A stretch of DNA of 39,220 bases, filler included, from Cladosporium halotolerans (taxonomy: Eukaryota), in NCBI RefSeq assembly GCF_011745625.1. It is 2 parts of 2 records of this genome, joined end to end, with 100 filler letters (N's around TTAATTAATTAA, not from the genome) between each part and the next. Parts side by side here need not be neighbours in the genome. Positions count along the whole stretch, not along the records: positions 19,735 to 39,220 come from NW_027191549.1; 1 more part is not named here. One strand, written 5' to 3'. Below are positions 3,674-39,220 of this stretch, in pieces. Each line of letters starts with the position of its first letter. Position 1 is the stretch's first letter. A model generated the notes under the pieces. It did not search any database. It was not told where the DNA came from and worked only from the letters and a program-made list of their open reading frames with translations. Both the position numbers and the translations under genes were made by a program.

Positions 3674-4422
3674 GCGAACGCCTTACCGCCCCTAAACCGC
3701 ACCGGTAATACCTCCCGGGACGCCTACTTTCGATGTCGGGATCTTCTCTAAACGCTTATTGTGCTGTTTCTCAGCAAGCGAGCGATTGTCAAAATATTAC
3801 CTTCTCCGCTGTATCATAATTCTTACCTCATCGGCACCTTCATGTCTCTTCTCGCGATGTGTAATTTCTTGACAAGAAAACTCTATTAATACACGAACTT
3901 CATCAGCTACGACTGTTTGGTTGCGCTGTAAGGCTGTTCAATAAGAGCCACTGCTTCTTGTTCATCTCTTCTTTCTTTTTGGTTAGGTCCAAGGCCGACA
4001 GCCGGTCTGGATATTGAGAGGGGATCTAATCAGATGTGTGGCAGACATCTGTGTGAGAAGGGCTCGGAAAATTACGAAGATGGGGCCACTCTGCTGGTAT
4101 CGAGTATCCTGGAAGACTGCATATCAGAGACAAAAGCTTTCCGAAGCCCTCCCATGACCCAGTCAAGACGGATGTTTGGACTGGTTGTGAGCGTCCCATC
4201 AATATCCAAACACTACTGTATACCCGGTGGCCCAGAAACAGCAGCACAATCATGCTCATCTTGCAAAAAGTGTCCGCACCCAGTATCGATTGAATTTATT
4301 CGGCGTAAACACGTCTCGGACTACATTACCGGTCGCCAGCCCGGTTTCAAGCTTGATAACTCCGAAGTATGATCTCTCCATTTTAAGCTTACATGAAGGT
4401 ACAAGATGAACTCATGGAACGA

Positions 4423-10947: not shown

Positions 10948-11541
10948 GTCCAAAGGTGTGCGATGGGACGGACGCCAGACGAAGACGCTGAAAATTGTCG
11001 CAATAAGTGTAAGGTAAGGTATGTTCTGGAGGGGAGACGGTGGACGCGGCTGAAGTGCTTTCCCACGCGTTTGGTAACCTGGACCCTTGAAATGGCGCTG
11101 GCAGCAGGACAGCTGAGGCAGGTTTCAGGCCAGCTGAGCGATTATGAAGGGCTGGATAAATCGCGCACGCTAGCCGCCAGACACAAAAATCGCTCATGCT
11201 GCGCCGCCCTCTCAACCACCAACCACGCAGCTACACCGACCTCGGTACTGATCATCTGCTCGAAATCATCTTGTGCGTTCCACGTGGGATACATCACTAC
11301 CATAGCGTGGCGACCACGAGACAGTCTCGCATGTGATGAAGTGGGTCCTGTGGGCTTGCCGCTTGCACGAAGGCAGTGCATCGTCAATGATTGTGTCAAG
11401 ATCGCAAATTTCCCAACAAAGCTAGAAAGCCAATCCATCAGTCATTGCTCATGGTCCCTATACCGCAAAGCACTTCCGGTGCCCGGGTCGTGCCAGGTGC
11501 GGTGTATCTCGCGCTCCCTCTGGCCCACATCCCGCAATGCC

Positions 11542-19734: not shown

Positions 19735-19817
19735 TGCACATGACGCGACATGAATATGAACATAGATTTTTCCCACTGCACATGACATGAACATGGCAAA
19801 ATTATTGGACATGACTG
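19735..19817. mobile_element. Probable DNA-transposon terminus (hAT-like) with ACATGA subterminal repeats
   Basis: Repeated ACATGA/ACATG and a tgcacatgac direct repeat (19735, 19777) end at ttggacatgactg; the reverse strand reads CAGTCATGTCCAA. Lies at the contig edge. Confidence 0.45.
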
Positions 19818-20307
19818 TCGGTGTACTCTCTGATAGCTTCGGTCGTCCATCCGACGAAGATGAGTTAGTGCTTACACTCCTCGATTGCGGGGAAGCCTTG
19901 GAGACTGAACGCGTCCCTCGCCTTGTTACCTGTAGTTCAACAGTATGAGTCTCTTCAATTACCGATGAACGGCTGCGTCGGACAGCCCATAGTCTCCATT
20001 CCTAGCTTCGGAAATTGCAGTGCTTAGATGCACGAGTACATGGAACTCCTTGCCAATACATGCAGTGAGACGCATGATTAGCGCATTATTGCATCGACTT
20101 TATGCGCAGATTTGCAGGGGTTTTTCACATCCCCTAAGGCCGATCAATGAAATATAGCTCACCTGATTTATACATTCGGAAAACGTCGACTTGGAGTCGA
20201 GGCGTAGGATCGCAGCAGTTGTGTCAGTCATATACTACGGGCTTTGTCAGAATCAAGCCTGTTTTCGAGACTCATCTAATCACGAGGCGGCTGGGCTGTT
20301 ACCAATC

Positions 20308-20692
20308 ATGGACATCACGGCAGCAATTGACAGAGTGACACTTTACGTTCAAGAGAATCAGGCGACACTCGCAATAACAACGGCCTCACTTGCGACAATG
20401 GGTTTTCCTGCTATCATAACCACCGCTGTGTTTAGCGCGGCCGGATTGACAGCTAATGGTCCAGTAGCTGGTATGCCTTCTTGCTCTACTGTCGCCTGAT
20501 GACCTTCAGACTGACCACAGGTAAGGAGGCGCTTTTGCCCTGCTGCAGTCCACGGTTGGTGCAACACCAGCAGTGGCGGCAGTTTTGCAAAGTGCAGCGA
20601 TGGGTGGATACGGGATGGCTATTGTCAATGGGGCAGTGCAATCTGGCAGTGCTATCACTGGGGCAGCGGCATTCGTGTATGCAGCGCAGTGA
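20308..20692 (+). CDS. Small Gly/Ala-rich hydrophobic protein of the IFI6/IFI27 (ISG12, Ifi-6-16)-like family
   Basis: AAGLTANGPVAG joined through intron 20471-20525 (AAG acceptor) to GAFALLQS...AVLQSAAMGGYG, matching the G.T..G..AG...QS...A.LQS pattern. Confidence 0.65.
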
Positions 20693-21077
20693 GAGCATCA
20701 CAGACAAGAAAGACAGGTACCAAAGCAAACTCTGGGATAAAGACCGTTGCAAAACTGAACTTTTGGTTCACTGATGTTTGCTTGCTTGTGATTCAGCCTG
20801 AAACATGCCTTCTAATTCATCGACGATCTCATCGTGAAACAGGTCTTCGTCGCGGGAGTTGAAGAATAACTCGTCATTGACATCTTGAAATACCCTCACT
20901 TTCACCTATACTCATTGCAACAAGCTTTTGGAGAATGTCGAAGATGTGCTTTCTCGGCTGGTTGAGGAGAGTCACTGATCGATTTCAACCGTGTACCGTT
21001 TCATGACGTAAGAGACAGCGTGCCAATTTGGTACAATCTTCTGTTGAATCATGAGATATTCTGCTAACTCATTGAGC

Positions 21078-21971
21078 TCACTGCGATTCCAACCATTGAA
21101 TCACGTCTGCTTCCCTCATGACCTTCAAACCGTCAATGCTCAAGTGCTCCGATTCGTACCCCAGCTTGAAAACAACCATGCCATTGCCAAACGTCGCGAG
21201 ATACCGTTTTAGCTGCTTCTTGATCTTGCCATGTACATAAGGGTTGGACTTGAATCCGAACATGTTCTTGTATTCAACCCAATTCGTGCGGAAGCCACAC
21301 AGCCAAGTGGTTTCCAGGAACAACAAATCCGGCGTTGCTTTGACGACGTTGACGAATCCAGCTTCAATACCGAGCCGAATTCTTTGGTTTTGCTGCTCTT
21401 CAGTCATAGAGCCAGGCTGTAACCTTTGCAATTGCGCAATGAAAGCTGTTTCGGCTTCAAGGGCTTGCCGTGCTTTCATCGCCATCTCTACCTTTCGGAT
21501 GTCCTGTCCCTCTTGACTGTTGTCTGGTGGAAGAAGTCTTTTGGCGCCTTCTAGTATGGCGCTGACGATTTTTATATCCAACGTTGTCCCCGTCATTCGA
21601 ATGAGACCTTCGACTGTTGGATTTGCAAATCGAATTTTTCGTGCTTGCTGGAATAATGGCTTGATCACATTTGCTGGAATGCCATTGTATGGGGCCAATT
21701 TGCCTGGTGTATCGAGTGCGACAGGGTGGTCAACAACAAGATTCCGCTCATGTGGGCGTAACACTTGGTTGGTACGGACATGGGCATGCTGTGGGTTGTT
21801 GGCATTGTTTTCCACGTGATACGCAGCAGTGAGCATGTGCTGGTTGAAATGAGCTGGTTCCAGAAAGCCTTTACGACATTTGCGGCACCCCTTGTGGACT
21901 GGTTCTGAACGAATGTGACTCTGTAAAGAAAGCCAAGTAGCGAAATGTTGGTCGCAGCATCTGAGAACCAT
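21078..21971 (-). CDS. Zinc-finger plus TPD-motif (CDIN1/C15orf41-like) PD-(D/E)xK nuclease
   Basis: N-terminal CCDQHF...H..H and CRKCRKGF...H.....H fingers. C-terminal ATPDLLF...NWVEYKNMFG...QLKRYLATFGNGMVVFKLGY. Confidence 0.75.
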   Translation of the reverse strand: MVLRCCDQHFATWLSLQSHIRSEPVHKGCRKCRKGFLEPAHFNQHMLTAAYHVENNANNPQHAHVRTNQVLRPHERNLVVDHPVALDTPGKLAPYNGIPANVIKPLFQQARKIRFANPTVEGLIRMTGTTLDIKIVSAILEGAKRLLPPDNSQEGQDIRKVEMAMKARQALEAETAFIAQLQRLQPGSMTEEQQNQRIRLGIEAGFVNVVKATPDLLFLETTWLCGFRTNWVEYKNMFGFKSNPYVHGKIKKQLKRYLATFGNGMVVFKLGYESEHLSIDGLKVMREADVIQWLESQ

Positions 21972-22933
21972 CTCTGCACGAATCCAATCTTTGTTGCGAA
22001 GCTGAAGCAAGCGTAAGATGATGACGAACTCATTCACATTCAAAAACATGCGTCGCCGGCTGCGCATCTTGGTGTAGTTGACTAGCATGGCCAAGCTCTT
22101 CCCTAGCTTCACATGCGAGGATCACTCAAGAGGCACCATGCGGATGCACATTTCTTACTGATGCCAAGAATCTACCTGAAGGGTTTTCAATAAGTCATGC
22201 ATTGTCTTACGCAAGTATGCGTTGTTACACATTGCAGGACCTTGCCCGCAATTCTGTGTGTTGCGATGGAGCATTTCGGTGGAAGTAAGAGTGGTGGTCC
22301 TACAGCAAATCACATTTCTGACTCCAACCGGCTCTTGATACGAGTGCTGGTGATGTCTTCATCCATCTGAAAAAAACCCTGTGCTTCAGATAGGAGAATC
22401 AAAGCTCGAGGTAGGTAACTTTCGGGAATAGGAGCCGAGCTGAGATGCACTGACAAGCATCATAGCCTGATTGTGCGCGACCGTGAGTGAGAATCGTCTC
22501 ATTTGGTCAAAGTATTTCTTCGCGGATGCTCTGGCAACACCGCATCATTTCTATGCAATGCATGGCGTGAGGATCAAAGTCAGTGTCGTGAGTCATCTGC
22601 AATAACAGTAGGCATGGAATCCGATTGGTGGGGTTAGACTCATCGACCGTTCCCTTCCCATCCTAGCCAGTGGCAGCCTCACCCTGCATGATATGGAATG
22701 CATCTTTTTGATGATGGTTTGCTGGTCATGCGTCTTGACGCTTTGAGTGCGAGAGCTTGAATTGGGCAACGGCCGGAGACCCCTCACGCGAGGCTAGCTT
22801 TCAGCTCTTAGATGTCGTGTCCGGCCTCTCAACCGAACCCAGATTACCCTCTCCACGCAAGAGTGTCTACTAATCTCAAATCTACTCGTCAAAGCCTTGC
22901 GAGCGGTGGCAGACTACTCATGAACCTAAAATT

Positions 22934-23224
22934 TCACACATAGCACATTAATGACTCTACTGCAGGCGCAAGCTCTTGGACGGGCTCGGGCTCAGGCTCG
23001 GGCCCAGGGTCAGGCTTTGGGACAGGCTCAAGCTCAGGCACAATCTCCGACTCTGGTGGAGGATACCCATCGTCGGTGTCCTAAATAAACTCTGGTTTCT
23101 TCACCTTTAATCCAGAAACGTTGATCCGGGCGTAAATGTCTTTACTGATCGCACCCTCCAATAAAGCACCACCCAGGGCTCTTTTGACGTCGCTGATGAT
23201 CTTGGTTTGCTTGGATTTGGACAT
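22934..23224 (-). pseudogene. Small gene or gene fragment with a Pro/Glu repeat, interrupted by an in-frame TAG
   Basis: MSKSKQTKIISDVKRAL...PEFI*DTDDGYPPPESEIVPELEPVPKPDPGPEPEPEPVQE. The frame continues across the TAG at 23081-23083. Confidence 0.45.
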
Positions 23225-23599
23225 TGTACTGTTGTTGCGTCTTGCCAAGTGTATCCGGCTTAGGCAGCGGTGCGGGTTCGGATTGTTCAATAGTGATGAA
23301 TGCTATGCTTCCTTATCCAAAGAGAAGTCCAGCTCAGATATGAGTGGTAAGACAAGCCAAGAGGGTAGAGATGTCTTGACGAAAAATCACTTCCATTCAA
23401 TTTCTCTCATCTGGGTACTTATATAACTGGAGAATAAATTATGGGGTTGAACCAAATCTCTGAACTCGACTCAGAAGGAAAGAACAGTATTAGTCCAGCA
23501 ACGGGTGTTGAATCGTCGAGGCCTGCTATCTAGCACATGCTGGTCAGTGTTGATTTCGCGGAGCTTCGTGGAACGACCATACCCGTCCTTTGGAATCCA

Positions 23600-24079
23600 T
23601 TAAATCAACCTGAGGCTCGCTAGCTTGATGACCAAACTTTCGGTCAGGTTGATTGTTTCCTTGTCATTGTCACGGGCGACCTCGTAGAAGGTACAGTGAC
23701 CGGTGCTGCAAACGAAGTGAAGCTTTCGCCCTTTGTTCGAGCTGGCAACTTGAAGACGGCTCGGCATGTGACATTCGCATCTCGGGTTGACCAAATGGCT
23801 GCCTCGCTCGTCCAGGAAAGTGATGAATTTGTCACATGGCGAGCATTTCAGGTAAGGGCGATTGGCGTTCCCGTTTCTGTTACTCGTCCTCGTTGTGAGC
23901 CTAATGAGGCTTTTCCCACTTTGACAGCATATTGGGCAGCGAGGCTTCCTCGGCTCAGGCGGGTAAACCGGCTGCGAGGTATTTTCGTGCTTGACCCGGG
24001 TCATCTTGCTTGATAGGATGGTCGATCCGCAAATAGAAGTTGACTGATCTTTGCTTGATGTTTTCGAAAACGTCAGCAT
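23600..24079 (-). CDS. Tandem GRF-type zinc-finger protein
   Basis: CPIC...TRTSNRNGNANRPYLKCSPC..F..F.D followed by CEC...SRLQ...GRKLHFVCSTGHCTFY. The start may instead be the ATG at about 24004. Confidence 0.7.
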   Translation of the reverse strand: MLTFSKTSSKDQSTSICGSTILSSKMTRVKHENTSQPVYPPEPRKPRCPICCQSGKSLIRLTTRTSNRNGNANRPYLKCSPCDKFITFLDERGSHLVNPRCECHMPSRLQVASSNKGRKLHFVCSTGHCTFYEVARDNDKETINLTESLVIKLASLRLI

Positions 24080-24637
24080 ATCAAGTCGTGCCCATAACCT
24101 TGGAAAGGAGACGAGTGCATGCTAGCCATCATACCGTGGCCATCCTCATATACTACCAGTCGACAGGGTAAGATGGAGTTCAGGCAACACTGATTGCGCA
24201 GCAAGAGTACGCGTATTCAATCATGAATTTGGGTAGGTTTGAGCTTCTGGAAACTATGAATTCAGCGCCTAGCGCGAACCTCGGAGTTATGCTCAGTGGT
24301 CTACACTGAGAATGTTTTTCCAATTGCAGTAGAGAACTTCTAGTGTTTGATACGATCGTCGATAAGGTTAAGATTATATAACTTGGCTGGCTGGCGGCGA
24401 GTAAGCGCTAGATATTCCTATCTGATCAGATCCACGGTCTTCCTACATCGCCAAAAATAATCTATTGAAGCTTGTCGTAGCAACGGTACCCAGCATGTCC
24501 GGTCGAACTGACGTGAGTAGCATCCTTGATGCAAGACGCAGAGGCGCTTTCAGGTGACAAGCTCGCAATGAAGAGTGGTATTCTGAATACGACGACGATA
24601 TTCCCAGCCTAAGATGCGTGTTAGTCATCATTAAGCT

Positions 24638-25318
24638 TCAGTACCATTGTTGAGACTTGACAGGCTTCAGCCACAATCCCAATAGCAAGACACCCCTTTC
24701 AGAGTTTGTATTACTTTGTCGATCTGGACAGGAAAAGGCTTTGCGCTTCTCCTTCAATTGTACTATTCGCACCTTTAGCTCGCGAGCGTCACATCTCGTG
24801 AATGTTGACTTACGAATGATCTCCCATCCCAGACATTCCACGAAATCTAATACATCCCCAAGCAAATTGTAAGTACCTCTATGACCTAGTACAAGCGACG
24901 CCGATGTCTTACATAACGCTTCTGGTAGTCCGTACATAGAAGCAATAGCCAGAAGCAGCCCTAGATATCCAGCGTTGTGAGCAGAATTCGGCTCTATCAA
25001 GGCAGCAGCAGCCAACCCATTGCTGGGATACAAGGGTAGCAAGGTCTTACACATCAGTTGCTGTGGGGAGAGAAGAAGCTCAGTATCTGTGGTGAGTTGC
25101 GTTGACTTGTCGCCAGGTAGAAAGATCTCCCGTCTAGTGGATGCTTTGTCGATCTGCCCTTTTTTTTAAGTTTGAGCCTAACATCCTCGCAAATGGCTTC
25201 GAGGCATTACAGAGAAGACAGAATGATGCGAAGATCCGGACCTGGTCATCACCGAACACCAGCAAGATGTCTCCTCAGGGTCATTGTCCGCAGCGCTTGC
25301 TGGCATTGTTGACGTCAT
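24638..25318 (-). pseudogene. Frameshifted BTB/POZ-domain gene
   Basis: Across frameshifts it reads DP(E)GDILLVFGDDQVRIFASFCLLCNASKPFARMLGSN.K.GQ...REIFLPGD, then LLLAIASMYGLPEALCKTSASLVL. Shifts occur near 25275 and in the 8-T run at 25160-25167. Confidence 0.65.
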
Positions 25319-26881
25319 GATAGAGGTGGAGTGGCTAAAGCACGCTGATGGAATGCTGAGACCATGCGTTACTTGCTTCAGAGACGCTGATCGATGATGC
25401 AAGCAGGAATCTTCTTCCAAATAGCTCATCAATGTGAAAAGAGTCGGCGTGATCCAAGTGTGACATAGAACTACGCCTTACTCTGCAGGCATGTTATTGA
25501 AGTTTGGGATAATTTCGGTACTTTATTCCACTTCCGCGAGTGTGACATCGTTTCCAAATAATCTACCAGTATTCATAGCCAGCAAAATGGAGCTTGAAGT
25601 TGCAAAATATTAAGGATTGTTTTCCAAGGCACGTGTTTTACCCCGCAGCGATAGTTTCAACAACGCGATGCCCACCCCGCCTAGGAACCTTCAGCTTGGA
25701 TATGCAGGATGTTCATCCTATGTTTATTATCGAGGAAATTCTAAGACTGATAGTCGTAGGTAATGTCGTCACACGGCGGTATTGAGACATTAGATAGATG
25801 ACACTTGAACTCATCTGAACGGCTTAAGTCCCATGAACGGCAAACCCATAAGTCGTGTTCGACCAGACTTGGCTATATCTCTTCGAAGTGGTGGGTTGGA
25901 GACATTTCGTTGTATTTGGAGAAAATGACAAAATGTGCTCTGATTGCCAAGGCGTATATCTTCGAAGACCAGAGTACCCATCCCTGTACGTGTTGAGCGC
26001 AGTACTACGGCATTGTTGGGACGATCTTCAGTTGTGAATTTCATGAATTTTCCGTCACCATCCCGGGAGGTATGCGATTTGTCATTGAAAGACTTCGAAA
26101 GAAGAAACAAAGCTTTTATTGGTAGACCATTTACTATACTTTCTAAAACAATACCGAGTGTAATTCGAGAAAGGCTGTTGAAGGCAGCGATGGAGCTTCC
26201 CGGGAGACAGCGCAATCTGAATCTAACTAGCTAAACTTTATTCAACTCTGCTAACGAATCTAAATTGGAACCCAGCTTCGGCGGAGCGTAAAAAAAAAGC
26301 GGATGCAGAAATCCTTCGGTCCGACCAATGTGCGCACGCACCGCTTCGATAAATCAGACGACTCACTTTTGTGCACTTGGCAAGAAAGTCATTGAAGCAG
26401 CACTATGATACTGGGTTTCCATTGCTCATACTGTATTGACTGTGTAATGCGCATATGTGTTGGAGATTAATGCATCTATACATCTTCCCCCGAACACCCA
26501 AGCTTTCTCAAGATCGGACAAATGGATGGATTTGCTTTTCATAGATTAACGGTCTTTGTCGGACGTTAATCCAGTCTTTGAGAGCTCGTCCACGTTCCAG
26601 CTCCCCCGTACGCGGTAGTAGATGCTGGTGAGACCATCTGTGGTCCGCGGACCGAAGGATTCATGCTTTATCTCAAGCCAGAAAAGCTCTTTGATGATAC
26701 GATGGTACACAATGAAGAATTTCTGCACCTCCGTGTAGGATAGTCTGTTCGACCGTGACCTGCCTTGAGTTAACTCATGCGTTGCGGAATGGCTGTTCGA
26801 TACGTCTGCAGCGCTGACGATCGGTTTACAAGATTCTCATCGCCGCCGGCAGTCAAAATATCACGAGTCGATGTCATGATT

Positions 26882-28468
26882 TCATCCTCTTCCGCTCACA
26901 GCTGCGTTGCCGCAACTACTCTCTCTCTCATCCCCCATCGACGACACCAATTCTGATCCCCGAAATCTTTGAAGTGAGTCTGGATGGAGCAGATGAGACT
27001 CCAAAATGTCGCCTTTGTCGATAGGGTGAAGCGAGACACGCCGAATACCCTCTGAATCCGCCTCCCACATGTAAGGTTTCAAAGCGTATGCGCATACTGA
27101 CGTGCGGTTGAGGATTTCAAATACGTCATTGAGGTCTGGATCGCCGTTGTCATCTATCGGTACTGCAAGTGGTAGATCTGGCCGATTTTCCAGGGCCTCC
27201 AGACCCTCGTTGGATGCGATTGAGAGCACTTGGATGTCCCTATCCAACCGAACGCGTGTCTCTTCTCTCTTACACATGCTGGAAAGCCTCTTCACGCCAG
27301 CGAGGCACACTTGTCTAGCTGTGATAGCATCAGATTCATCCGGATGATGGCGGATGTAGTGCGTCGCTAGAGCCATGAGACACAGCTCTACCCCTGCGGA
27401 TTCGCCGATGCCAAACTCTTGCAGCACTTTGAGAGACGGTGTCAAGGTATCCGCTTCCGGTAGGACGAGAATATGAAACAACACGCAGGGACAGGAAGCG
27501 TAATCACACTGCGCTTCTTGTTCTTTGATCTTTTCTTGATCTTCCGTTTCCTCGGTGAAGATGTCGCGGAGTCGCTTGTAGCGTTGATGGTGATAGTGCG
27601 AAGTCCATGTTAGTATCAAGGAGCACAGAACTTGTGCGAGATGTCTATGTAGCTTCGAAAGGCTACTGCTAGAGCGCAGAGCAAGGACATGCCGCATAAC
27701 GTCGGCGCACATGACTTGCAGTGCAGATGTGTTGTCAAGGGCGTCCAGGATTCGACCATGTCGCAAGACCCGTCCCAGCCATGATCTCCGCAGAACGACA
27801 GCATCCAGTGGGGTGTAGGTATGCTGCAAGCACCAGACATGTTCGTCTCCCTCAAGCTGTCTGTCTTCCTTTGGTGTTTGACCTTTGACCCACAGCCACA
27901 GTTGTGTACTTTTCTGGTCCAGTAACGACAGCGCACGTAAAAGGTCTTCTTGGCCTGGCACTGAACCGTCGCCTTCGCTCCAGATATGACAGAAAACTGT
28001 CAGTAAAAGAGGCCTAGTTTCTCGGAAAGCGTACTGTTTCGATGCCAAGATGGCCAACCAGAAACTAAGAGCGTCTAGTGACACGACCGCGTTGGAGCTT
28101 CTGGTATCTTGGGACGCGGATCGGCCGTCTCTTGTTTGAGCACAGACACTGATGTCTGCCAGGAACACCCGCTTTTTGTCTTTCCGAGAGAGGTCATCGA
28201 GGCGGATTGCTGAGGTCGAAACCACGGGTATGAAACGCTCGGGTGACAGCTCTTCGCTCGCGGCAAAGTGAACCCGGACGAACTTTGCGGCTTTGAATAT
28301 CGGTCCGAGCCTATGGTGAAATGTTTTGTTGACTGCGCAAAGACTTGGCTGTATCTTGTAGCAGACGTGATCTTGTTCGACACTCAGCTCCGCCGCGGAA
28401 GTGGAGAGGAGAGAACCTAAGCATAGCAGAAGGATCTCTTCGGGCAATCTCACGAAAAAATCACACAT
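26882..28468 (-). CDS. Hypothetical 528-aa protein with N-terminal F-box-like motif
   Basis: Long ATG-initiated ORF. FFVRLPEEILLLCLGSLL...SLCAVNKTFH resembles an F-box with an insertion. The remainder is unrecognised and the 3' end may be spliced. Confidence 0.6.
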   Translation of the reverse strand: MCDFFVRLPEEILLLCLGSLLSTSAAELSVEQDHVCYKIQPSLCAVNKTFHHRLGPIFKAAKFVRVHFAASEELSPERFIPVVSTSAIRLDDLSRKDKKRVFLADISVCAQTRDGRSASQDTRSSNAVVSLDALSFWLAILASKQYAFRETRPLLLTVFCHIWSEGDGSVPGQEDLLRALSLLDQKSTQLWLWVKGQTPKEDRQLEGDEHVWCLQHTYTPLDAVVLRRSWLGRVLRHGRILDALDNTSALQVMCADVMRHVLALRSSSSLSKLHRHLAQVLCSLILTWTSHYHHQRYKRLRDIFTEETEDQEKIKEQEAQCDYASCPCVLFHILVLPEADTLTPSLKVLQEFGIGESAGVELCLMALATHYIRHHPDESDAITARQVCLAGVKRLSSMCKREETRVRLDRDIQVLSIASNEGLEALENRPDLPLAVPIDDNGDPDLNDVFEILNRTSVCAYALKPYMWEADSEGIRRVSLHPIDKGDILESHLLHPDSLQRFRGSELVSSMGDERESSCGNAAVSGRG

Positions 28469-29391
28469 CGTCTCTGATGCTTACCGCGAGCGGCGCTTGC
28501 AACTGGAGAGAATCGTTTGACCTCGTTCCTGGCTAGTTCAAGAGCATATTCCCGTCAATTCTGGTGAGACGTCATTTGCGCCCGCGCCACAACATGTGGA
28601 CTCCGCACAATGTGACATTGCTTGGAGAAAGTGGGTCTCGGCTGAAACGTACGCCGGCCCGCTTAAAGGGCCAAGAATTACTCGAGCCGTACGAAAGCAG
28701 CCGTTCAGTCCGAATCAAGGAACCACAGGCCGGGCTGTCGGTGGGCCTGAGCCGTCCCAATCGCTACGAGTGCTCGCGCTTGGAGCGACAAGGATGTTCG
28801 CTGAGTGGAGAGAGCCAAGCAAGGCTGCTTGCACACCAGTCCTTTCCATGTGATCGCGCCCTACAGTATCCGGTCGCTGCGCATGACACTTGAGTCTATG
28901 TAGTTGTGGCTGCAGGGAGGCTTGTCTCATCCGGCCGTCCGCCGCTGTAATCGATGAAGCGCAAGACCCTGCATGCGCCATGCAACACTTTCTGGTCGTC
29001 ACGCCCCGGGCTTTTGCAATTTCTTTGATTGGTATTCATGTCATTGTGCTTCAATGCCCTGATTTGTGTTCACGGGTATGGAACATAGAGAACACATTGC
29101 ACTCGAGAATCCTCGAGAGAGCGGCGTTGAACGGAGGATGGTATTCAAGCTGCGACCAATCAGCCATTTCCTCGGGAGCAGCTCGGTATGCAATATACAG
29201 CCGGTCTGTGAACGTGCGGATCACCCATATCGGCAAATTGTCGCATCTCGCTAGCTTTCTCGGCAACTTCACAAGTCATCACGCGTCACGTCTAGAGAGA
29301 GCAACACGGTCTACGGAGCAGAATATTACGCTACCTCTACCCATGAGCTGGGACTTCCACGCATTTAATGGCGCTTACGAAATACATAACA

Positions 29392-29766
29392 ATGTCGACA
29401 CCTGCGCAAGCTGCGCGTTCCGGTCGGATCCAACCTACGCCAAAGCCTGCTGGCCCCAACGCAAACAATGTGTTCAGCGCGTCGGACGGACAGAATAACG
29501 ATCAGCCACTTTCACAGCCCGCGCGACCCAAGGGGCTTCAAACGGCCGCCAAAATCACAACATGGACCGCTGCAATCGAGCTCGGCGCGTCGAACGGTCA
29601 GGCGGTGATAAAAAAAGCTAGGAGGCGAATGGGAATTGGTCAGATGGGCGCAAGGCGTGGGCGCAAGCAGTATAGGAGGAGCCGAGGCTTCAAATCCACA
29701 ATTTCATTCTGCCATATCTCAACCGCGTTGACCCACCCATGCCAGTGGGCAATCTCCACCATTTGA
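29392..29766 (+). CDS. Possible small basic low-complexity protein
   Basis: ATG in a good fungal context (ACAATGTC) and an open frame only; no recognisable domain. Confidence 0.2.
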   Translation: MSTPAQAARSGRIQPTPKPAGPNANNVFSASDGQNNDQPLSQPARPKGLQTAAKITTWTAAIELGASNGQAVIKKARRRMGIGQMGARRGRKQYRRSRGFKSTISFCHISTALTHPCQWAISTI

Positions 29767-29806
29767 ATCAAAACAGGACGTCAGATGTGCTTCTTCTTCC
29801 AAAGGC

Positions 29807-31165
29807 TCATGAGACACTTTCCATCCTCGCTGTCGTGATGCCGATCGTGGACTCGAACCTTCTCCGTGGACGTACACCGTGTCGTAATGATGCGTAAGAC
29901 ATCTCTCTAGTGGCATCTGCCATGCGCCTTAGTATCCCTATGTCTGCATCCGTCTTTGGCGTAAGCTCTTCCCAGCGCGGAACAGTCCATTTGACCCAAA
30001 TATTACCATGACAAGGCCGCATCTGCGTCTGCAAACAATGCTTGCGGAAATACAAGGCGCAACAGTAACACGATGGCTTGCTGCATGCGATGTATCTGTC
30101 ATCGTCGACAAATTTCAAATCTTTCAGGTAGAAGTACTCCAACATGATCACCTCAGCGTGTGGCCTTGTTTTCAGCTTCTTCCTTGTATTGGCTGAATGA
30201 AACCATTTGACCAAAGAGTCCGCTTTTTGCATTCTTTCAAGTAGTGCTTCACACATGGGGGATTCCTTGAAGTTGGGGAACACTCGCAAGATCAAGTTTC
30301 GCAGGTCTTGATCTAACTGCAAGCAGATTTTCTCGTATTTCGGAGGCTGTACCGATCGCACAACCGCATTACGTATGATGGAGAGAAACTGAGGTGCATA
30401 GACAACGAGAGATATCGAGACCTTCTCCCAGTGGCCCAAGCGAGCTACCAGGTGTCTTGCAGGGGGAAAGAGATCGCTTGCACCCCCCGCAATTGATCCC
30501 TTCAACAAGTCGTATGTCGCAGAGTGTCGGAATACGTGTGCAGCCTTGCAAAGATCATAGTGGCATTCCCTTTCGCCTAGTACAGCTTGTATGCCTGCCC
30601 AGATAATGGCTTCCCACTAGAGTCAGTTGCTATTGACGATCCGACATCTGATGGGAAGGAACTCACCGCTGGACTGAGTATCATCGTCTTGCGCCAAGCT
30701 CTTCTCGGCAATGAGACGATCAAGCCTATCCACGTATGCGGATATTCGATCCCAGCTACGTTGCACCGAACGAAGAGTGATCTCAGCCACGAAGGACTGT
30801 GTATCCGATCCTTCAAGAGAAAAATCGGTGAGAAGGTGCAAGATCTCTTCCAAGTGCCGTCGCGCGCTTTCTTGATGGATATCCGTGGTGGTGATCCAGA
30901 AAGTGACACCATCCGTTCCTTGTTCAACGCCAATAGACACAACGCTTTGCCCTGCATGTTCGGAGTCACAGAGGAAACAGAGGTCGTCCAGGAAGTGATG
31001 CCACATTGACCGGGTGTCAATACTGGTGCTCAAGCTCTGTGCATCCCTAGCATCCGAACCTGATCCATGCTGGAGGAGGCTTAGCAGGAAGAGACTGTCG
31101 TAAAGATCCGACGAAATTGCAGCAGGGTCTTGACTCAAGGTGTAAGACTGTTCGAGGCTTGCCAT
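29807..31165 (-). CDS. OTT_1508-like nucleic acid/nucleotide deaminase
   Basis: N-terminal FLDDLCFLCDSEHAGQSVVSIGVEQ...FWI and catalytic PHAEVIML...YIACSKPSCYCCALYF...CHGNIWVKW. The two exons join in frame via intron 30610-30666 (GTGAGT...CTGAC...AAG). Confidence 0.82.
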
Positions 31166-31465
31166 TCTTGCGTGGTAAGCGCCATCAAAGTACCTGGAGG
31201 TGAGAATACATGGTATATATATGTGTCTTGGGTCGTGGCCACCTTGGTGGAGCACTATGAACGTCCTGCAATATGGGATGCAGTGGCACGACTGGTCTAT
31301 GCAGTACGGCCCAAATACACAGCGAAAGCACTGTTCCCTCGATTGCCGCAATGAAATCATTGAGATGGCGGCGACGCTGGATCTACAGAGGCACATTTTG
31401 TACTTAAATACGGATCGTCAATCGCTCGGCGGATGTCCCTCGTCCCTTATGTGCTCATCAAACAT

Positions 31466-32269
31466 TCAGACCACGATCCCGATCGCCCGACAAGCTGCCC
31501 TATTTGCCAAGTGCTTTGCCTGTTTCTTCGTTCTACCCAATCCCTGATGCTGTGATCCATTGACATAGACACGAGCAGAGAAAAGAAGCGGATTGACAGG
31601 GGACCGCTCAATGTCACACCGCGCCTCCTTTCCAACCCTGTCCCCATACTCTTTGAGTGCCATGCTGTAATGTGCTATATTCGTTTCCAACGGAACCCCC
31701 GGATCTTCGAAATACACGTCTCCATCTTGACGAGCAGGCTGACCTCCACTTGCAGGTCGGTTGATCTCAGTCGGCTCGCGCTCGTCCGAGCTTCCTTCGC
31801 CTTCGACCAATCTCCTCAATTCCCTTTCACCATCTGAGATCGTCAACCTCCCTATAGCAACGCAATAAGTGCGGAAATCCGACGCTCGCGTCATGACACC
31901 AGCCTCTCCCGGTGGATGAGTTCTCGCGCTTCCAATTAGTGCAAGTCGGGCTGCATAAGGAATGCTGGCTTTAAGTCGAATCAACTCCATCTACAAGTTA
32001 CCACATGATTAGCTATCTATGATTGTTGCGTGGGATGATCTTGAGCTCACTTTTAGGTCATCTGGCGTAGCCGTGGCTGCAGAATGGATGACAACATGTC
32101 GTGCGAGTCGAGAATCTAGCACACGCTTGCCGAGCCAGTAAAGATTTTCCTGGTTAGCAGTGTTCGCCGTGCGCTCTGAGCTGAGGTGTTCAAAGTTCGA
32201 GTCATCTGACAAACCATCATCAGAAGGATGATGGGATCTTGTGACTTCGTATTCAAACGGTGAGGACAT
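31466..32269 (-). CDS. Protein with a C-terminal double-stranded RNA-binding domain (dsRBD)
   Basis: YSMALKEYGDRVG...FSARVYVNGSQHQGLGRTKKQAKHLANRAACRAI matches the dsRBD G.G.(S/T)KK.A...A consensus. Phase-0 intron 31991-32050. Confidence 0.8.
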
Positions 32270-33010
32270 GGCTCAACGACGGTGAGTTATTTGGGTTCTC
32301 GTCTGCCAGATGGCTAGTGAGTCTAATTTTTCCTGAGACGAGGCGACAGAGTTCTTTTATGTCTACCCATCGTAACGTGACTCATGGTGTAAGTACGTTC
32401 GATAATTAGGACGCAAGAACGGGTGAGCCTCTATCGAGGATCTGAGCTTGAAGGACCCAAACATTGAGCGGCTCGCGAAGTTGACTCATACAACGACAGC
32501 TCGCAGTGCTACACACTCCTTGGGCACGCCTGCAGACTCCCAAAGTAAAACTTCAATCGTGCGATATAGATGTGGGATGAGCATAGCAAACGATGGCTTG
32601 TTCTGCCTGTAGAGGCGTTGCAGGGGCCGTACGGCGTTTTAGCGCTATATTCGGTGAGCTTTATTGTCATGCATTGCATGCAGCATGCACGCGACATCTG
32701 ATGTCTTGAAGCTTGGGGCTTGTAAGAGCTGATCGAATGATCGCATTATTCCAAGCGATCAAAATAGCGGTGAGTAAAACCTCGATGACTCAAATGATCG
32801 TGAGGTCATACTCCCCGTCAAGGCTTTCGTATCCTCATTTACGGAATAGTAACTCCACCGACTCACCCTTACACCCCAAAATGACAACACGAGAACTCAT
32901 TTGTGCTCTTCAGAAGGTGATACCCACACAATAATGAAGAAAAGGGATTCTCACTCGGCCAATAGTATGACACGGCGGCACTTGACGAGATCCTTGGTCA
33001 TTTGTACACG

Positions 33011-33730
33011 ATGCAGAAGGACAAGAAGAGACGCTCCAAATCTTCGACCTATACAATTCAGAAGCGAGGCGCTCGCGATAATTCTCGCATTGAGAAGTTC
33101 TCCACCTATACTGGCCCTGACTCGACGACTCGTTGGATCTTAGCCAGTAATAGTGTGCAATGGACGAAGAAGCCTCTGTCCTTTTGGGTGCCACCTAATC
33201 ACCCTCTGGAGAGCAACGCAACCCCCGGCGAGCTGATCAAGTTCTACATCAACGCCAATTGCGAAGACCATTAGTCTCGCATGGCTCAGCGTATTGCTTG
33301 CATTGTGCTGCTAGAGCTCCACTCCGACTTTGGCAAGCCGACGGTGGCCGCGCTTGCGCATACGGTGACGATGGGTGCAGGCTCTGCACTTCCGCCCATG
33401 GACATTGAGAAGACAGTCAAAGATATGCTCGGCCACGGCAGCCGATACAAAAATATGGAATTGGCCCTTGGCCCCGGGATATGCCTTGTGTTGGGATGCG
33501 CTTTATCCGAATCGCAGTGAGACACTTCCTCCCGTATAGGAAAGCCATCTGCTGACAGCTTAAGCTGGAACAAGCTATTGACGAAGAGCGGACGTCTGTT
33601 CGATTCAGTGATCGCGCAGGTGAGAAAGACAGAAGCTCTGCAACTCGCTGGAATTTACGCGCCTCTTCAGGCCGAGATTGTGAGACAGAAGATATTGGAT
33701 CTCAAGCAAAGGAGCAGATTTCGAGGTTAG
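33011..33730 (+). pseudogene. Hypothetical gene with a single in-frame TAG (5' end uncertain)
   Basis: ORFs 33002-33274 and 33281-33520 are one frame split only by the TAG at 33272-33274. Intron 33517-33564 leads to HWNKLLTKSGRLFDSVIAQV...FRG*. Confidence 0.55.
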
Positions 33731-34179
33731 GCAAACGATCGTCATAGAACTGGTTGATCTGGGAGAATTCGTTTTTTCGCCACTGTCAGCAGGCTTTCAT
33801 GTATTGAAAAGCCGTGCATCCTGGATGCTATTACAAGAAAGCCCAATCACCCTCGCGACGTACATCCTCGAGCAAACCATTAAGATCATTGATCCTGGAG
33901 GTCATGCTACTCCAATGTGATATCAAATTTCTGCCATACGGGTGGCAGACTCAGTGAAGAAGTATGCCGTCAGTTGTCTGAAAGTTCACATTGACTCTGC
34001 CATGGAAGGTTCTTACTTGGTTTGTCCTGAACGCCTGCCCAACCACTATGATTGATTGCAGTGAACACAAAAGCGTAGGACTGGCGCAATGGAGGAATCA
34101 CTCGGATGTCCTGGTCGCTCAAGGACATCTGACCCAAGTACCGATTGTTCAGTTGTAATACGTCAACTACGCTCGTACC

Positions 34180-36717
34180 CTATTCTACTGCTTTTGCTTT
34201 CTTCTTCTTCTTCGTCGGAAGGCTCTGTACGTCATTCGATATCTGCAGCGTCCGGGTATTGCCGCCATCGACGGTGATGGATTCCTTCTCAATATCAAAT
34301 GCAAGTGTATCGGTAGTCATCTGTTCTCCGCTTGATGATGGCGGCCATTCTGTCTTTACTTCCTCCGGACTCGACTGCTGATCCCCGACCATGTCTCTCA
34401 CCCTGTTGCGTAACTTGGCATCTCCAACGTCAGTTAGATGAAACGACGCTTCTTCTTCGTCCCGATCGAAAGCTGCAGCGCAGGGCTGACTTTTCCCTGC
34501 TTTGTTGGCAAAAGAGCGTAAATGACAGTGTGACATTATGCAGTAAGTCACTTACTCAGAGACCGAAAGCTCACGTGTTTCCTGCATGTCTCCAGCCCCA
34601 ATTCGAGTATTTGTATGGTTCTTGTCAGGGAATTGCGTTGGTCGGTGTTGATCGCCGGCTCTTTGGCGATCCTGTCGATCTCGAAGGCTTCCATCTCGAG
34701 AATTTTGGCAGGAGTCAAGATATCAGGAAGTGGTTTGATCAAAAGGTCTTCCCAGCACTGAGTGGCGACGTTATCAACGACGTTCTTCATTGCAACCTAT
34801 AATCAGATAAGTAATTGAAGGAGATATCAAACGAGAAGTAGAGCCTACTCTGTAGAATGCAAGCATGCAATCGACCGCTTCTCCACAAGCGTAACGGTCC
34901 ATGTCAACCTCGTTCTTTGCTGAAAGTGCGGATATCAAACTCGACTTCTTCAGCTTTGTGAAGTTGAGTTCCTCTAAAGCTTCGCCATCACGAAGGTGGA
35001 GGAAATTACGTAGCTTTTGTGTCAGATCGTCTTCCATCCTCTTGGTTCTCACATTCTGAATGGTCTCTGTAAAATAGTGATTGTAAGTTATGGGGTGTCC
35101 TGATTTGTACTGGTCGAGAATTGAGTCGACTTTGGCACACATGTTGACAAGTCGCTGTTGCAAGTCCGGATCGACGAGCTCGCGCATGATAAGTTCAGCC
35201 GTTTGCTCTTGCGTAAGATGGTTAAATGCTGATTCTAGAAAATCTCTTGCAGCACTCCATATGTTTTCGACAAATTGAAGGGCGATGGATCTCCATGGTG
35301 TACACTGCTCATGGAACAGGTCGGCAATGAGCATAGGATTGAAAGTCCCCGGTATCTCTCTACCTCTGCTTCTAATCAGAAGAGATTTGGCGTGCTCGAG
35401 GTATTGATTGCGACTCATGTGTGTGGGCCCCGACGCCCGTGGCAGGGCGTTGGCGTCGTGTTGCGAGGCAATCTGATAGCGGTGACCGCGGGTACGCATC
35501 GTTTCCGCGAATTCTAGTCCCAAATTCTGCACAGATGCCCTGACCCTGCGGCCGTACCCATCCCCTGAAAGAGGGTCGCCGAAGAAGGAGTCTCCGTATA
35601 CACCATCGATCGCTGCGCGTGCAAGATGCTGATAGCTTTGAGCTAGGTGCAGAAGAAAGCTTCGTTGTTCACTTGTAGTCTGACGCTTTTGGCCTAGCTT
35701 CCGAACTTCTGTGCGGCAATTGGACAATTTTAGTTCGATATCCATGATAAGATCTGGTAATTCGTGCTTGATCTGGCCCAGTAGGACTTTGCTGAGACGC
35801 GACCTAAGACTCGCCACTCCCACAACTGCTCTCGGCAGCTGACTCCACGCCCCTTGGCTGAGGAAGGCGGTCTCGCTTTGGTCTCGATGCTCCGAAGAGA
35901 CATGCCGAGAATCGTAATCTCGGTTCTTCAAAACATGCCACCCAAGATCAAACGAAACGTCCTCATTTCTCGCAAGACTGACGAACTCCGATTCACTGTC
36001 AGAGCCCGCAGAGAGTGTGTCCGGTTTTGTGACGATCCCCAGCGTGCGTAGGCCGTGCGGGTCAGCCTGCCGTGCCATCTTGAGCACGATTTGGTTGGCG
36101 TAGTCATTTTTAGCAGAGACGATGGCCAGTATGATTGACCTGCGACTTGTCATGTATCGCTGTACTAGCGACCGTACGAGCTCGATGTCTTCGGCGGACT
36201 GGAACTTGTTGTGCGAATGTATGAGCCCTGGCAGATCAACGATAGTCAAATGCGGTCGGTCAGGTCCGGAGATGTCGATGCGTAAGACGTCGTCTGTAAA
36301 TGCACTGCCGCCGTCCACGACACCCATAGTCGTCTTTGCCTCCTCGAGGACCTCCGCAAAAGCTGTGAGATCGGTCAACATCATGTTGAACTGTTGCAAC
36401 TTCTGTGTTTCAGTCGGTTTTCTCCCGGGACCGGGCGTGATGGTGACCGAGACTTGATCGGCCGATGTTCGTCTGAGGACAACCTCTGTGGCAAACCGAG
36501 TACATAAGTTGTCTTTTGTCGGGAACGGGATCCCGGAGATGGCTTCCAAAACCGAGCTCTTACCGGAGGATTGGTCGCCGCAAACAACCAGCTGAGGTAG
36601 TGCAACTAAGTGACTAACACCGTGGGACCGTAGTTTGTCAATGTCATCGAGTAATCGGACGTCAGAAGGATGGTGGATCGGTTGTAGAATCGTCTTTGTC
36701 TCTGTTGTCCTCTCCAT
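34180..36717 (-). CDS. Mx-like dynamin-family GTPase with GED and a spliced C-terminal tail
   Basis: Motifs LPQLVVCGDQSSGKSSVLEA, CTRFAT, IVDLPGL, IVTKPD, LGWHVLKNR, RGREIPGTFNP, TYNHYF. Intron 34797-34848 leads to the GED (VAMKNVVDNVATQ). Intron about 34497-34555 (GTAAGT) joins in frame to a tail ending KKKKKAKAVE*. Confidence 0.92.
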
Positions 36718-38506
36718 TGCGAGACTTGGTGTGGGAGGTGATGGATGAAGAGTTATCGAAGACTTTTGACAGAAGACGACTGGAGTCTCGTACTTGTATC
36801 GTCCGTTTCGAATTTCGCTGATAGTGTCAGTGCGTGGAAGTTTTGACCGATCAGAAGTGCTCTAGCGGCATCTGCGAGAGGACCAATCGACATCGACAGC
36901 CTGTTCCAGAACTTACGATGAGGCATATAAAGTACTTAGATGCGATCATAGGGTTCTCGACCAAAGTCACCAATGAGTCATCAAATCTGCTGCCCGTTGA
37001 CTAGGAGCTCACCAAGCCAATCACTCTGATGCGAAGCTTCAGTGCCCGCGAAATCCTGAATACGACCTCTAATCCCAGGGCTGTCCTGAACACTGTAAGC
37101 TCGTGGTGTGAACAATGTTGGTTCAGATTGTCAACTACATGCTGCAATGTTCAGAGTCGCACGCCCCAATTGCGGGGCGTACGGTCCTCTCGCAGAGCCA
37201 TCAGCAATCTGATCGTAAAATCTCTTCGGCCAGCCATGGAAGCGCTCCGATTTGGGTTCGTGAAGCTATCCCGTGGCTGAGTGTGACTTCCCTGGAGACC
37301 CGTGTTGGATTGGGCGTGAAGGCATGGCCAATGCATCACCTTATCATTCCACCATATATATCTAGGGGCGTTCTAGTGCAATGAAGCAGGTTGTTTTAAT
37401 TGGGGTGCTCAAAGCACTATACCGTACGGCATTTTAGCGCGCGGAGATCGTGGAAGACTTTCTGCATCAGATGGGAGGCAAGATGTGAATGCCAAGGATT
37501 CAAGCGGCTCGGTATTATATGTGTCTTAGCAGGGATTAGAACGGCAAGGGACGGGTACACGCGGGCCGTGTAAGCGAAATTGGGAGACGCCGACACGCTG
37601 GCCGCTGACTTGCTAAGCAAAGAAATCAAAGTCGATGCGTATGAGCATAGGTGATCGAGGCGCAAGCCTCCGCCACGGCTTCCGCTTGCTTCTGGATCGT
37701 CTTGGATCGAGCGCATCATGACTTGGGTGCTCGGCGGACTGACTTGCTCGAGATGCTTGTGCCTTCTTCGTCTCTCTGTGACGGGCTTTGTCTGTTAGTC
37801 GAAAGCTCCAGGTCAGTTCCGCAATGAGGCCAAGTCAATGTTCTTGCCGCTGATGGATTAGTCGATTGAACTACACTCTCTCTGCGCTGACGCGCTGTGC
37901 ATCTGCGACTTACGGCTTGCAGTTTGGTACGACAAGCAAGCTGACCCTGTACGCTAAGTCTATCACAGCATCAGAACATCAGCAGTGCTGTAGCACTTTT
38001 CAGCAAGGCGAGCTGCAGTCGTACTTAAGTCACGCAGTGCTCTTATTGACATGACGATGTAAATAAGCAAAGGGAAGCAATATTCGGCCGAAAATGTCAG
38101 TAGACTGAGCTTTCGGGGTCGCGTCGTGGCGGTAGGAAGTCGTGGCAAGGATGGCCGCGGAGCCAATCTCTATTGACAGCCATTCAATCATGCAGCGTGT
38201 CATCCCCGTTATCGCTCGGTTCGGTCCTTGTTGCGGACCGATCCGTCAACTCCCCTCAAGAGCTCAGTACACGATCGTGACACGTTACGCCGGATGCAAG
38301 ACACGGCCAAACGTGACGCACGTATCGATCATGTCATCAGGACAAAGAAGCTTCATGTTACTTGTGTTGTCCAGTGGCAATCCCAAGCTTTCTCGTAGTG
38401 ACACTTCCAGGACGCACTCGATCGCCTCAACAGCCTTCAAAGGCTTTGGCAGTAAGAGACGGGCGAGTCTCCGTCTGGCCCTCAATGTGGCTTCTCTTTT
38501 GCTACA

Positions 38507-39121
38507 TCATTGGTCTGGTTTCGCGGGCACCTTCTTGCATACTTTGGCAGATGCGGTCAGATTTCCTTGAGCCAGTGGGCCACTTTCTGTAAAACCCTCC
38601 ATTAGAACCTCCCATGTGGAGGGGTTTCCATTCTTCTTGATGGGAACTTTTTCCTGCCCGGTGTTGCAAATCTGTCCGCCATTCTCTCGTGTGATATCAA
38701 TAGCGGTGACGGCGTGTCCTTCCTCTAGCTCGTCTTGGTACTCTTGTTTGATGGCTTCAAAAAGGCTTTCGTGTGTTCTAATTCCGCTCAAGGGTATGAG
38801 ACCGATCATCCGCTTTGATTCTCCAATGTACAATTTTAGCCATCTAGTCAGCCCAGACGCGGTCGGTGCGTTGTTTGCAAAAGGTGACAAAGTCGCTAGG
38901 TGATTTGCGACATCGTTCCTCTGTTGAAGTAGGACATCCTCAACACGTCTCTCATCTGTACCGAAAGGTTGCTGAACGTGTGTGCCCGACTTTGGTGATC
39001 CCGGACAACTGCCGCAATCTACGTTCGGTGAGCCTGCGGAATTTTGAGACGCCTTAGATGACCCGGATTGCTTTCCGAATAGTTCCAAATCCCCAAGCAT
39101 TGCGATTTGAAAGGTCTGCGG
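38507..39121 (-). pseudogene. 3' portion of a hypothetical gene cut off by the terminal repeat element
   Basis: About 200 open codons with a globular-looking C-terminus (WLKLYIGESKRMIGLIPL...ESLFEAIKQEY). The upstream frame runs into the (GCTT)n element. Confidence 0.45.
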
Positions 39122-39220
39122 CAGTGGTGTCCACAAGCAAGCAAGCGCCGTGCTTGAGGTCCGTCCGCTTGCTTGCTTGATATGCGGTATTGTGCTTGCT
39201 TGCTTGCTTGAATAGACCGA
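39122..39220. mobile_element. Probable DNA-transposon terminus (hAT-like) with (GCTT)n subterminal repeats
   Basis: Starts CAGTGGTGTCCAC. Perfect 14-bp inverted repeat at 39134-39147 and 39166-39179, with a further GCTT array near the window edge. Confidence 0.5.

Follow-up and report, generated by a model that had tools for sequence, protein, structure and literature searches.

The deaminase locus of Cladosporium halotolerans

The window analyzed in this work is a stretch of 39,220 nucleotides (nt) from Cladosporium halotolerans (assembly GCF_011745625.1), a Dothideomycete of the order Cladosporiales. It consists of two parts of two records joined by 100 filler letters, and positions 19,735 to 39,220 come from NW_027191549.1. 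Within this second part lie three closely spaced genes, here named A, B and C (Table 1). Gene A encodes a protein ending in a double-stranded RNA-binding domain (dsRBD), gene B an OTT_1508-like deaminase, and gene C a protein whose frame is interrupted by a conserved TAG located in a predicted RNA hairpin. A preliminary description of the locus had placed the stop of gene A at 31466 and the ATG of gene B at 31165, 300 nt apart on the same minus strand, and had proposed that the pair might be a split ADAR-like editor of viral double-stranded RNA (dsRNA). Our gene models agree with those coordinates, while the conserved TAG of gene C suggests a different target for the deaminase.

The locus was compared with 36 related metagenome loci (numbered with the prefix L), obtained by scanning metagenome contigs with a deaminase alignment, in which relatives of gene A were searched by tblastn and with a hidden Markov model of the family. 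Fourteen of them had at least 3 kb of upstream and at least 1.2 kb of downstream flank and were taken as evaluable; most of the remaining loci were too short to judge. L006 and L007 are near-duplicates of each other, as are L014 and L015 and also L016 and L018, so that fewer independent lineages than loci are represented. RNA evidence consisted of contigs of public runs, which drop minority variants; two of these runs, X6 and X11, share their organism code with the run that holds the whole stretch.

Table 1. Coordinates of genes A, B and C and of the predicted hairpin in the window.
Feature	Position	Strand	Description
Gene C, whole	32881..33730	+	Three exons; 114 aa if the TAG terminates, 250 aa if it is read as sense
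Gene C exon 1	32881..32916	+	12 codons from the ATG; the same 12 residues start the close relative P0063; putative boundary
Gene C intron 1	32917..32965	+	Putative; donor GTGATA at 32917
Gene C exon 2	32966..33516	+	Coding on either side of the in-frame TAG; tblastn conservation flush to the TAG on both sides in 14 loci
Gene C in-frame TAG	33272..33274	+	Codon 115; candidate A-to-I site is the A at 33273
UAG hairpin	33260..33281	+	The loop ends in U and A, and the 3' arm begins with G; predicted fold and covariation
Gene C intron 2	33517..33564	+	48 nt, GTGAGA .. CTGAC .. AAG; holds a second in-frame stop, TGA; junction matches P0070, P0072 and P0074; predicted
Gene C exon 3	33565..33730	+	Terminal stop 33728-33730
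Gene A exon 1	32051..32269	-	ATG at 32269, 73 codons; acidic N-terminal motif and degenerate RNase III signature NLYWLGK
Gene A intron	31991..32050	-	60 nt, GT..AG; X6 and X11 contigs skip 31990->32051 (CT..AC on the + strand)
Gene A exon 2	31466..31990	-	174 codons and stop TGA 31468-31466; rest of the RNase III-like domain, disordered linker, C-terminal dsRBD with TKKQAKH
Gene B exon 1	30667..31165	-	ATG 31165, 300 nt past the gene A stop; N-terminal region conserved in 27 loci
Gene B intron	30610..30666	-	57 nt, GTGAGT .. CTGAC .. AAG; predicted from in-frame GT..AG enumeration, removes the in-frame TGA and TAG between the long reading frames
Gene B exon 2	29807..30609	-	Deaminase domain; HAE 30160-30152, SKPSCYCC 30082-30059, stop 29809-29807

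A conserved in-frame TAG in gene C

Gene C was recognized as three consecutive open reading frames (ORFs) in one frame of the plus strand, divergent from gene A and conserved in many loci. The codon at the interruption was TAG in all 14 loci holding the gene, at overall protein identities of 26-70%, and it lay within the motif D-[A/P]-stop-S-R-[M/I]. Coding conservation directly adjoined the TAG on either side, with no room for an intron, and identity past the TAG (32-71%) was no lower than ahead of it (23-70%). Since the first Met past the TAG was located 11-51 codons downstream in 6 of the 14 loci, no point of restart is conserved.

A single stop was present in 13 of the 14 gene C alignments. 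The copy in L018 (2320-2868, minus strand) has a second in-frame stop that is absent from its near-twin L016 and that may reflect either a sequencing error or a decaying copy. With regard to exon 1, low-depth contigs of X6 and X11 (32913-33144, plus strand) crossed intron 1, which would be compatible with frequent retention, an internal transcription start or a still provisional exon 1 model; because these contigs retain the intron, the exon 1 boundary is given as inferred.

Relatives of gene C were sought among 1.84 billion library representatives, and 111 were found. Eighteen of these terminate no more than two residues from where the TAG lies, 25 start at the first Met after it, and others span it; the in-frame UAG explains why gene callers split or truncate this gene. 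In the 29 aligned homologs that span the site, the residue at this position was His (16), Trp (6), Gln (3), Arg (2), Tyr (1) or Ile (1). Judging from these stop-free homologs, Trp is not required at the site, and the presence of Gln and Tyr would also fit readthrough of the UAG.

No Pfam family was detected in gene C or in seven relatives. Regarding C2H2 zinc fingers, the sequence past the TAG showed no consistent pattern in the window or in 11 loci, 19 long gene C homologs contained no zinc-finger domain, and a strict C2H2 pattern was found nowhere in the window. A profile search of solved structures with gene C returned nothing below an E-value of 0.018, and a protein atlas search with the natural homolog P0074 gave no usable match.

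A predicted hairpin around the UAG

The UAG of gene C was predicted to lie in a hairpin of the same geometry in all 13 sequences (12 of them distinct), with a loop of either 5 or 8 bases and a stem of 6-10 predicted bp, 8 in the window. The window hairpin had a minimum free energy of -8.8 kcal/mol and a z-score of -3.83, with none of 200 shuffles being as good. Across sequences, z-scores ranged from -0.14 to -3.83; they were -1.86 or lower in 10 of the 13 and reached -0.14 in L016 and L018.

The third base of the Ser codon that follows the UAG was paired in 12 out of 12 cases, as U-A (6), A-U (4), G-C (1) or C-G (1), and covariation was likewise seen at the third position of the Arg codon after it. 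As the covarying positions are synonymous, the RNA structure itself is under selection. Further, a covariance model of the hairpin was run over the window and the 36 loci (252,826 bases in total), where it marked 15 places only, namely the window and the gene C loci, plus one weak match at 38304-38331 that holds no TAG; within these bases, the model detected no further UAG hairpin.

Linkage of the three genes

The adjacency of genes A and B reported in the preliminary description proved to be conserved. Ten of the 36 loci (L002, L006, L007, L012, L015, L016, L018, L022, L034 and L036) carried a gene A relative upstream of the deaminase and co-oriented with it, and this arrangement was present in 9 of the 14 evaluable ones. 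The spacing stayed at approximately 300 nt wherever the deaminase N-terminus could be placed. Deaminases of the gene A-linked loci were 30-60% identical to gene B, with the pairing persisting down to approximately 30%, and they were spread over several clades of the deaminase tree; since this tree is unrooted, it gives no direction. From gene order and sequence comparison, we conclude that the pairing is not due to chance and constitutes a conserved, albeit not universal, unit. A functional link between genes A and B is likely, given that the pair is conserved and co-oriented.

Gene C was identified in 14 of the 36 loci and gene A in 10, with both present in 8. Within the evaluable set, 11 loci held gene C and 9 held gene A, L013, L029 and L035 held gene C without gene A, and L026 and L033 held neither. 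The order of the genes varied: gene C was divergent and upstream of the A-B pair in the window, L002, L006/7, L012 and L016/18, convergent and downstream of the deaminase in L013, L015, L029 and L035, and part of a C-A-B tandem in L022. Since the linkage was kept through these changes of order and orientation, it is probably functional. To judge by this gene content, the deaminase and gene C look like the core of the module and gene A like a frequent accessory.

Seven longer homologs were inspected for natural fusions of the dsRBD and the deaminase, and none of them was genuine. Two database models merge neighboring genes, i.e., P0055 (Cladosporium fusiforme, 659 aa), in which A and B are joined, and P0095 (726 aa), in which an OTT_1508 deaminase is combined with a C-like protein. 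P0055 was rejected as an A-B fusion, since the final, conserved dsRBD helix is lost from the model, which appears to be merged. In P0095, the residues flanking the stop are left out, as is usual for merged or mis-spliced models. Both are probably annotation artifacts arising from the tight spacing and the in-frame stop. In addition, the RNA contig of gene A ended at 31377, short of the deaminase ATG.

Several loci showed further arrangements of these genes. In L022, a second, inverted pair of gene A and deaminase (9718-10951, minus strand) was located about 4 kb from the first, with no gene C detectable in the 1.8 kb available; L034 resembles this second pair. In L013, where the deaminase and gene C are present and gene A is absent, the divergent upstream neighbor of the deaminase is a Dicer-like gene (2-3819, minus strand) encoding DEAD, Helicase_C and Dicer_dimer domains and two ribonuclease III (RNase III) domains.

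Gene A and its predicted RNase III-like fold

The gene A product comprises 247 aa, and P0042 (247 aa, named from Cladosporium halotolerans) was 100% identical to it over the query, exon 2. The RNA contigs of both X6 and X11 skip exactly 31990->32051, which confirms the intron and shows that gene A is transcribed. Residues 187-241 matched Pfam dsrm (PF00035) with an E-value of 3.6e-5 and 24.7-25.5 bits against a cut-off of 23; Pfam recognized this C-terminal domain alone, and not the N-terminal one. When compared with solved structures, the family profile matched the dsRBDs of ADAR2, PACT, PKR and TRBP, ADAR2 being the best (E 2.1e-9). A lysine-rich helix motif of the KKxAK type, which in dsRBDs contacts RNA, was nearly invariant in the family.

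An AlphaFold model of gene A (mf9a603615b02, built on 21 sequences) had a mean predicted local distance difference test score of 72.9, with approximately 90 in the folded parts and a disordered linker. In Foldseek searches, it matched over both domains whole bacterial RNase III, the RNase IIIb and dsRBD of Dicer, Rnt1 and the mitoribosomal protein mL44 (best E 5.9e-5, probability 1.0), with the RNase III proteins of A. aeolicus, E. coli and T. maritima aligned over 217-235 columns at an E-value of 6e-5. By VIA, residues 35-141 superposed on mini-RNase III with a Z of 8.9 over 98 residues (root-mean-square deviation, rmsd, 3.3), a value below 13 being moderate evidence for a helical domain. The C-terminal domain aligned with solved dsRBDs at a Z of approximately 10 (rmsd 1.6-2.6, 64-73 residues). 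No significant match was obtained by hhalign between the gene A family profile and the Dicer-like protein of L013.

This Dicer-like gene carries the canonical RNase III signature RLEFLGD, the counterpart of which in gene A is NLYWLGK. Relatives of exon 1 were available from nine lineages and, with motif positions matched by eye and not by residue-level structural superposition, Y/S and K/R/Q replaced both signature acids in all nine. Gene A has the features expected of an active RNase III as far as the fold followed by a dsRBD is concerned, and lacks the acidic signature residues. On the basis of the model, we read it as an RNase III-like pseudoenzyme, devoid of the catalytic acids, with a canonical and presumably working dsRBD. 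It shares two-domain order and fold with mL44, the RNase IIIb and dsRBD portion of Dicer and class 1 RNase III. However, in contrast with these proteins, the gene A family lacks both signature acids, has an N-terminal domain invisible to Pfam, is small and lineage-restricted (13 database matches) and is linked to a deaminase.

Gene B, an OTT_1508-like deaminase

Gene B has two long ORFs that share a frame, with TGA-CTC-TAG between them. Recoding of these stops was considered and rejected, since a 57-nt intron with good signals spans them at a position shared by L002, L003 and L006; in L002, the length is also the same. The Cladosporium fusiforme annotation splices its deaminase at this site too. 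The spliced product comprises 433 aa; the C-terminal ORF matched Pfam OTT_1508_deam (PF14441) with an E-value of 1.4e-18 and 67.1 bits against a cut-off of 27, and this family was found in all 41 near-length homologs.

The intact HAE and SKPSCYCC motifs noted in the preliminary description were borne out, as the zinc-binding and catalytic residues H153, E155, C183 and C186 were invariant across 25 aligned relatives. Preceding the CxxC, the window has ACSK where relatives have GCSK, with an invariant K; the family table gives GxxK. According to Iyer et al. (2011), who defined the OTT_1508 clade, noted fungal members and proposed defensive roles for the eukaryotic ones, the fungal members are characterized by GxxK before the CxxC and by a helical insert after strand 2 (PMC3239186). 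In the model of the deaminase relative P0011, two strands precede an extended helical portion (residues 97-249), and as a whole this model was unmatched by solved deaminases. A Foldseek search of the deaminase model (438 residues) gave no PDB match at E <= 0.001, and a VIA-wide search gave helical-bundle matches to the insert alone (Z <= 7.5).

RNA contigs of the four runs searched, one of which (X16) yielded none, left the deaminase stretch 29836-31338 uncovered, which says nothing on its expression. Just past the gene B stop, runs X6 and X11 showed a transcribed stretch (29090-29688) made up of short, loose-ended pieces at a depth of 15-150, in which no convincing coding frame was found.

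Comparison with known systems

The preliminary description considered the substrates of OTT_1508-type deaminases largely unknown, a view that is now outdated. Neurospora OLD-1 and OLD-2 are OTT_1508-like A-to-I editors of messenger RNA (mRNA) that correct the UAG of the adjacent gene, old-1 being paired with zao-1 and old-2 with zao-2 (Honda, Yokoyama and Suzuki 2025; PMC12754623). These enzymes favor hairpin loops with U at -1 and act on a few specific mRNA sites, not on long dsRNA; they are induced by mycoviruses and seem to need further, unnamed cofactors (PMC12754623). The OLD system is listed for Eurotiomycetes, Sordariomycetes and one basidiomycete (PMC12754623). For Fusarium graminearum, Zou et al. 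(2024) describe a homologous stop codon in CHE1 and the annotation errors resulting from it (PMC11169179).

The locus studied here resembles the OLD-ZAO and CHE1 cases in that an OTT_1508-like deaminase adjoins a gene broken by a conserved UAG (14 of 14 loci). As in OLD-ZAO, the target A lies in a predicted hairpin loop with U at -1 (13 of 13 sequences). Gene callers likewise truncate the gene, restart it or splice round the stop, which are the three ways given by Zou et al. (PMC11169179). However, ZAO and CHE1 are C2H2 zinc-finger transcription factors, whereas gene C has neither a C2H2 finger nor any Pfam domain. As it lacks zinc fingers, gene C is not a ZAO by ZAO's defining feature. In further contrast with OLD-ZAO, in most loci here an RNase III-like dsRBD gene lies between or beside the other two, the host is a Dothideomycete, and the module is known from its genes, while editing and virus induction are known from Neurospora.

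The likeness to animal ADARs consists of a canonical dsRBD followed, in the same order, by a zinc-dependent HxE/CxxC deaminase, the best solved match of the dsRBD being ADAR2. Here, however, two genes are involved, separated by a stop and 300 nt and, as far as the RNA contig shows, transcribed separately, and gene B belongs to PF14441 and not to the ADAR family. Moreover, the partner also bears a dead RNase III domain, and the likely substrate is one hairpin loop instead of long dsRNA.

In the literature searched, neither a dsRBD or RNase III-like partner nor a UAG target other than a zinc-finger gene was reported, although the paper of Honda et al. (2025) or its supplements may contain one. 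What looks new at this locus is that, in a kind of system described only in 2025, the UAG target is not a zinc-finger gene and an RNase III-like dsRBD gene accompanies the deaminase. This suggests that the design in which a deaminase edits its neighbor's stop is wider than zinc-finger targets and reaches Dothideomycetes. OLD-ZAO is the third known eukaryotic system of A-to-I mRNA editing, and a dedicated dsRNA-binding pseudo-RNase III in 9 of 14 evaluable loci represents a concrete candidate for a sensor or cofactor.

Proposed mechanism and alternative explanations

The explanation that we favor, giving it a slightly better than even chance, is a three-gene, OLD-like switch in which the deaminase edits its neighbor and the dsRBD protein is a candidate sensor or cofactor. 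In the resting state, gene C would give its 114-aa product only. The induced deaminase would turn A33273 of the UAG into inosine, the codon would then be read as UGG (Trp), and the resulting 250-aa protein might execute or control a stress or antiviral response. Long dsRNA is probably bound by the gene A protein, which may dimerize via its RNase III-like domain and would serve as an accessory, either as a sensor or cofactor that links dsRNA with the editor or as a dsRNA-binding effector that is co-induced. As a stem of 8 bp is short for a dsRBD, a role in sensing or licensing is likelier than recruitment to the hairpin. Within this scheme we infer, rather than observe, that editing takes place, what induces it, that the proteins of genes A and B touch each other, and what gene C does.

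Several results weigh against this explanation. The sole RNA contig over the TAG (X6, 33145-33344) carried the genomic A, at a depth of approximately 4. At the corresponding site of stop-free homologs, the residue was mostly His (16 of 29), with Trp in 6. A stem of 6-10 bp is short for dsRBD binding. Gene A was absent from five of the 14 evaluable loci (L013, L026, L029, L033 and L035), and a well-supported deaminase clade of 11 rows had no gene A partner at all; being missing from these five loci, gene A is neither essential to the deaminase in general nor the obligate half of an enzyme. An effector role for gene C is a guess, since it contains neither a zinc finger nor any known domain. Besides, the comparison with Neurospora OLD/ZAO and Fusarium CHE1 was one of description and not of sequence.

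A split ADAR, as envisaged in the preliminary description, would use the dsRBD protein on viral dsRNA to recruit or activate the deaminase for promiscuous A-to-I or C-to-U hyper-editing or for nucleotide depletion. The conserved, co-oriented A-B pair with its spacing of approximately 300 bp would suit such an enzyme, as would the canonical dsRBD with its best match in ADAR2, the Dicer-like gene that stands beside the deaminase instead of gene A in L013, and the defensive roles proposed for eukaryotic clade members by Iyer et al. (2011; PMC3239186). However, the characterized fungal members edit a few specific hairpin-loop sites in mRNA (PMC12754623), none of the seven longer homologs was a genuine fusion, gene A is missing from 5 of 14 evaluable loci, and the conserved gene with its UAG in a hairpin would be left unexplained, so that we regard this explanation as distinctly unlikely. 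Because this third conserved gene has a strictly conserved TAG in a hairpin loop, site-specific correction of a stop codon is favored over hypermutation of viral dsRNA. Of the earlier interpretation, it is the likely functional unit and the plausible antiviral or dsRNA context that hold.

The genes might also be uncoupled, co-regulated neighbors sharing promoters within a stress or antiviral island, in which case the UAG would be decoded by programmed readthrough, or would be a true stop, the frame past it being used in another way, and the dsRBD protein would act independently. Gln or Tyr, the typical insertions at UAG readthrough, occupied the site in 4 of 29 homologs, gene A is expressed in X6 and X11, the RNA contig across the TAG is unedited, and a dynamin-family GTPase linked in the window, L002 and L023 suggests an island. 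We nevertheless find this rather unlikely: the stop codon sits within the hairpin loop, whereas readthrough elements lie downstream of the stop, and the linkage between gene C and the deaminase outlasts reordering at approximately 30% identity, which island co-regulation alone would not require. OLD enzymes that edit a neighbor's UAG provide, in addition, a direct precedent against it (PMC12754623). Another editor might instead correct the UAG, e.g., the Tad2/Tad3 transfer RNA deaminase with a stage-specific cofactor in sexual development; together with Ame1, this enzyme acts in Fusarium and Neurospora on numerous UAG codons that lie in hairpin loops and have U at -1 (PMC12754623; PMC11169179). 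That system, however, has been described for Sordariomycetes (PMC12754623) and the host here is a Dothideomycete, and the retention of the UAG gene beside an OTT_1508-like deaminase in 14 loci would go unexplained; we see a very slim chance for it.

Returning to the three-gene switch, a stronger version of it can be formulated, in which the cofactor still missing for OLD-type deaminases would be the RNase III-like dsRBD protein, which would dimerize on viral dsRNA and license the deaminase for the neighboring UAG, completing an immune switch of sensor, editor and effector. We put this version forward tentatively and hold it to be more doubtful than not. If true, it would amount to a convergent, functional "split ADAR" wired to a stop-codon gate and not to hyper-editing.

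Neighboring genes and related transcripts

Some "non-coding" transcripts beside OTT_1508 deaminases may be stop-gated genes. In Zymoseptoria tritici, the divergently transcribed "lncRNA" (long non-coding RNA) MSTRG.63441 lies some 700 bp away from Zt09_03_00977, which encodes an OTT_1508-like deaminase, and the two are co-expressed during infection (r = 0.91; PMC10711317). This transcript may in fact code for protein behind a stop gate, as proposed for gene C, and could be a relative of gene C or gene A.

Lastly, a gene for a dynamin-family GTPase (Dynamin_N, Dynamin_M) was located beyond gene C, at 34548-36861 on the minus strand of the window, approximately 2.3 kb past the gene A start. A GTPase of this family also adjoined the module in L002 (3-550) and was divergent beside the deaminase in L023 (25-604, minus strand), and it may form part of one stress or antiviral island with the module.

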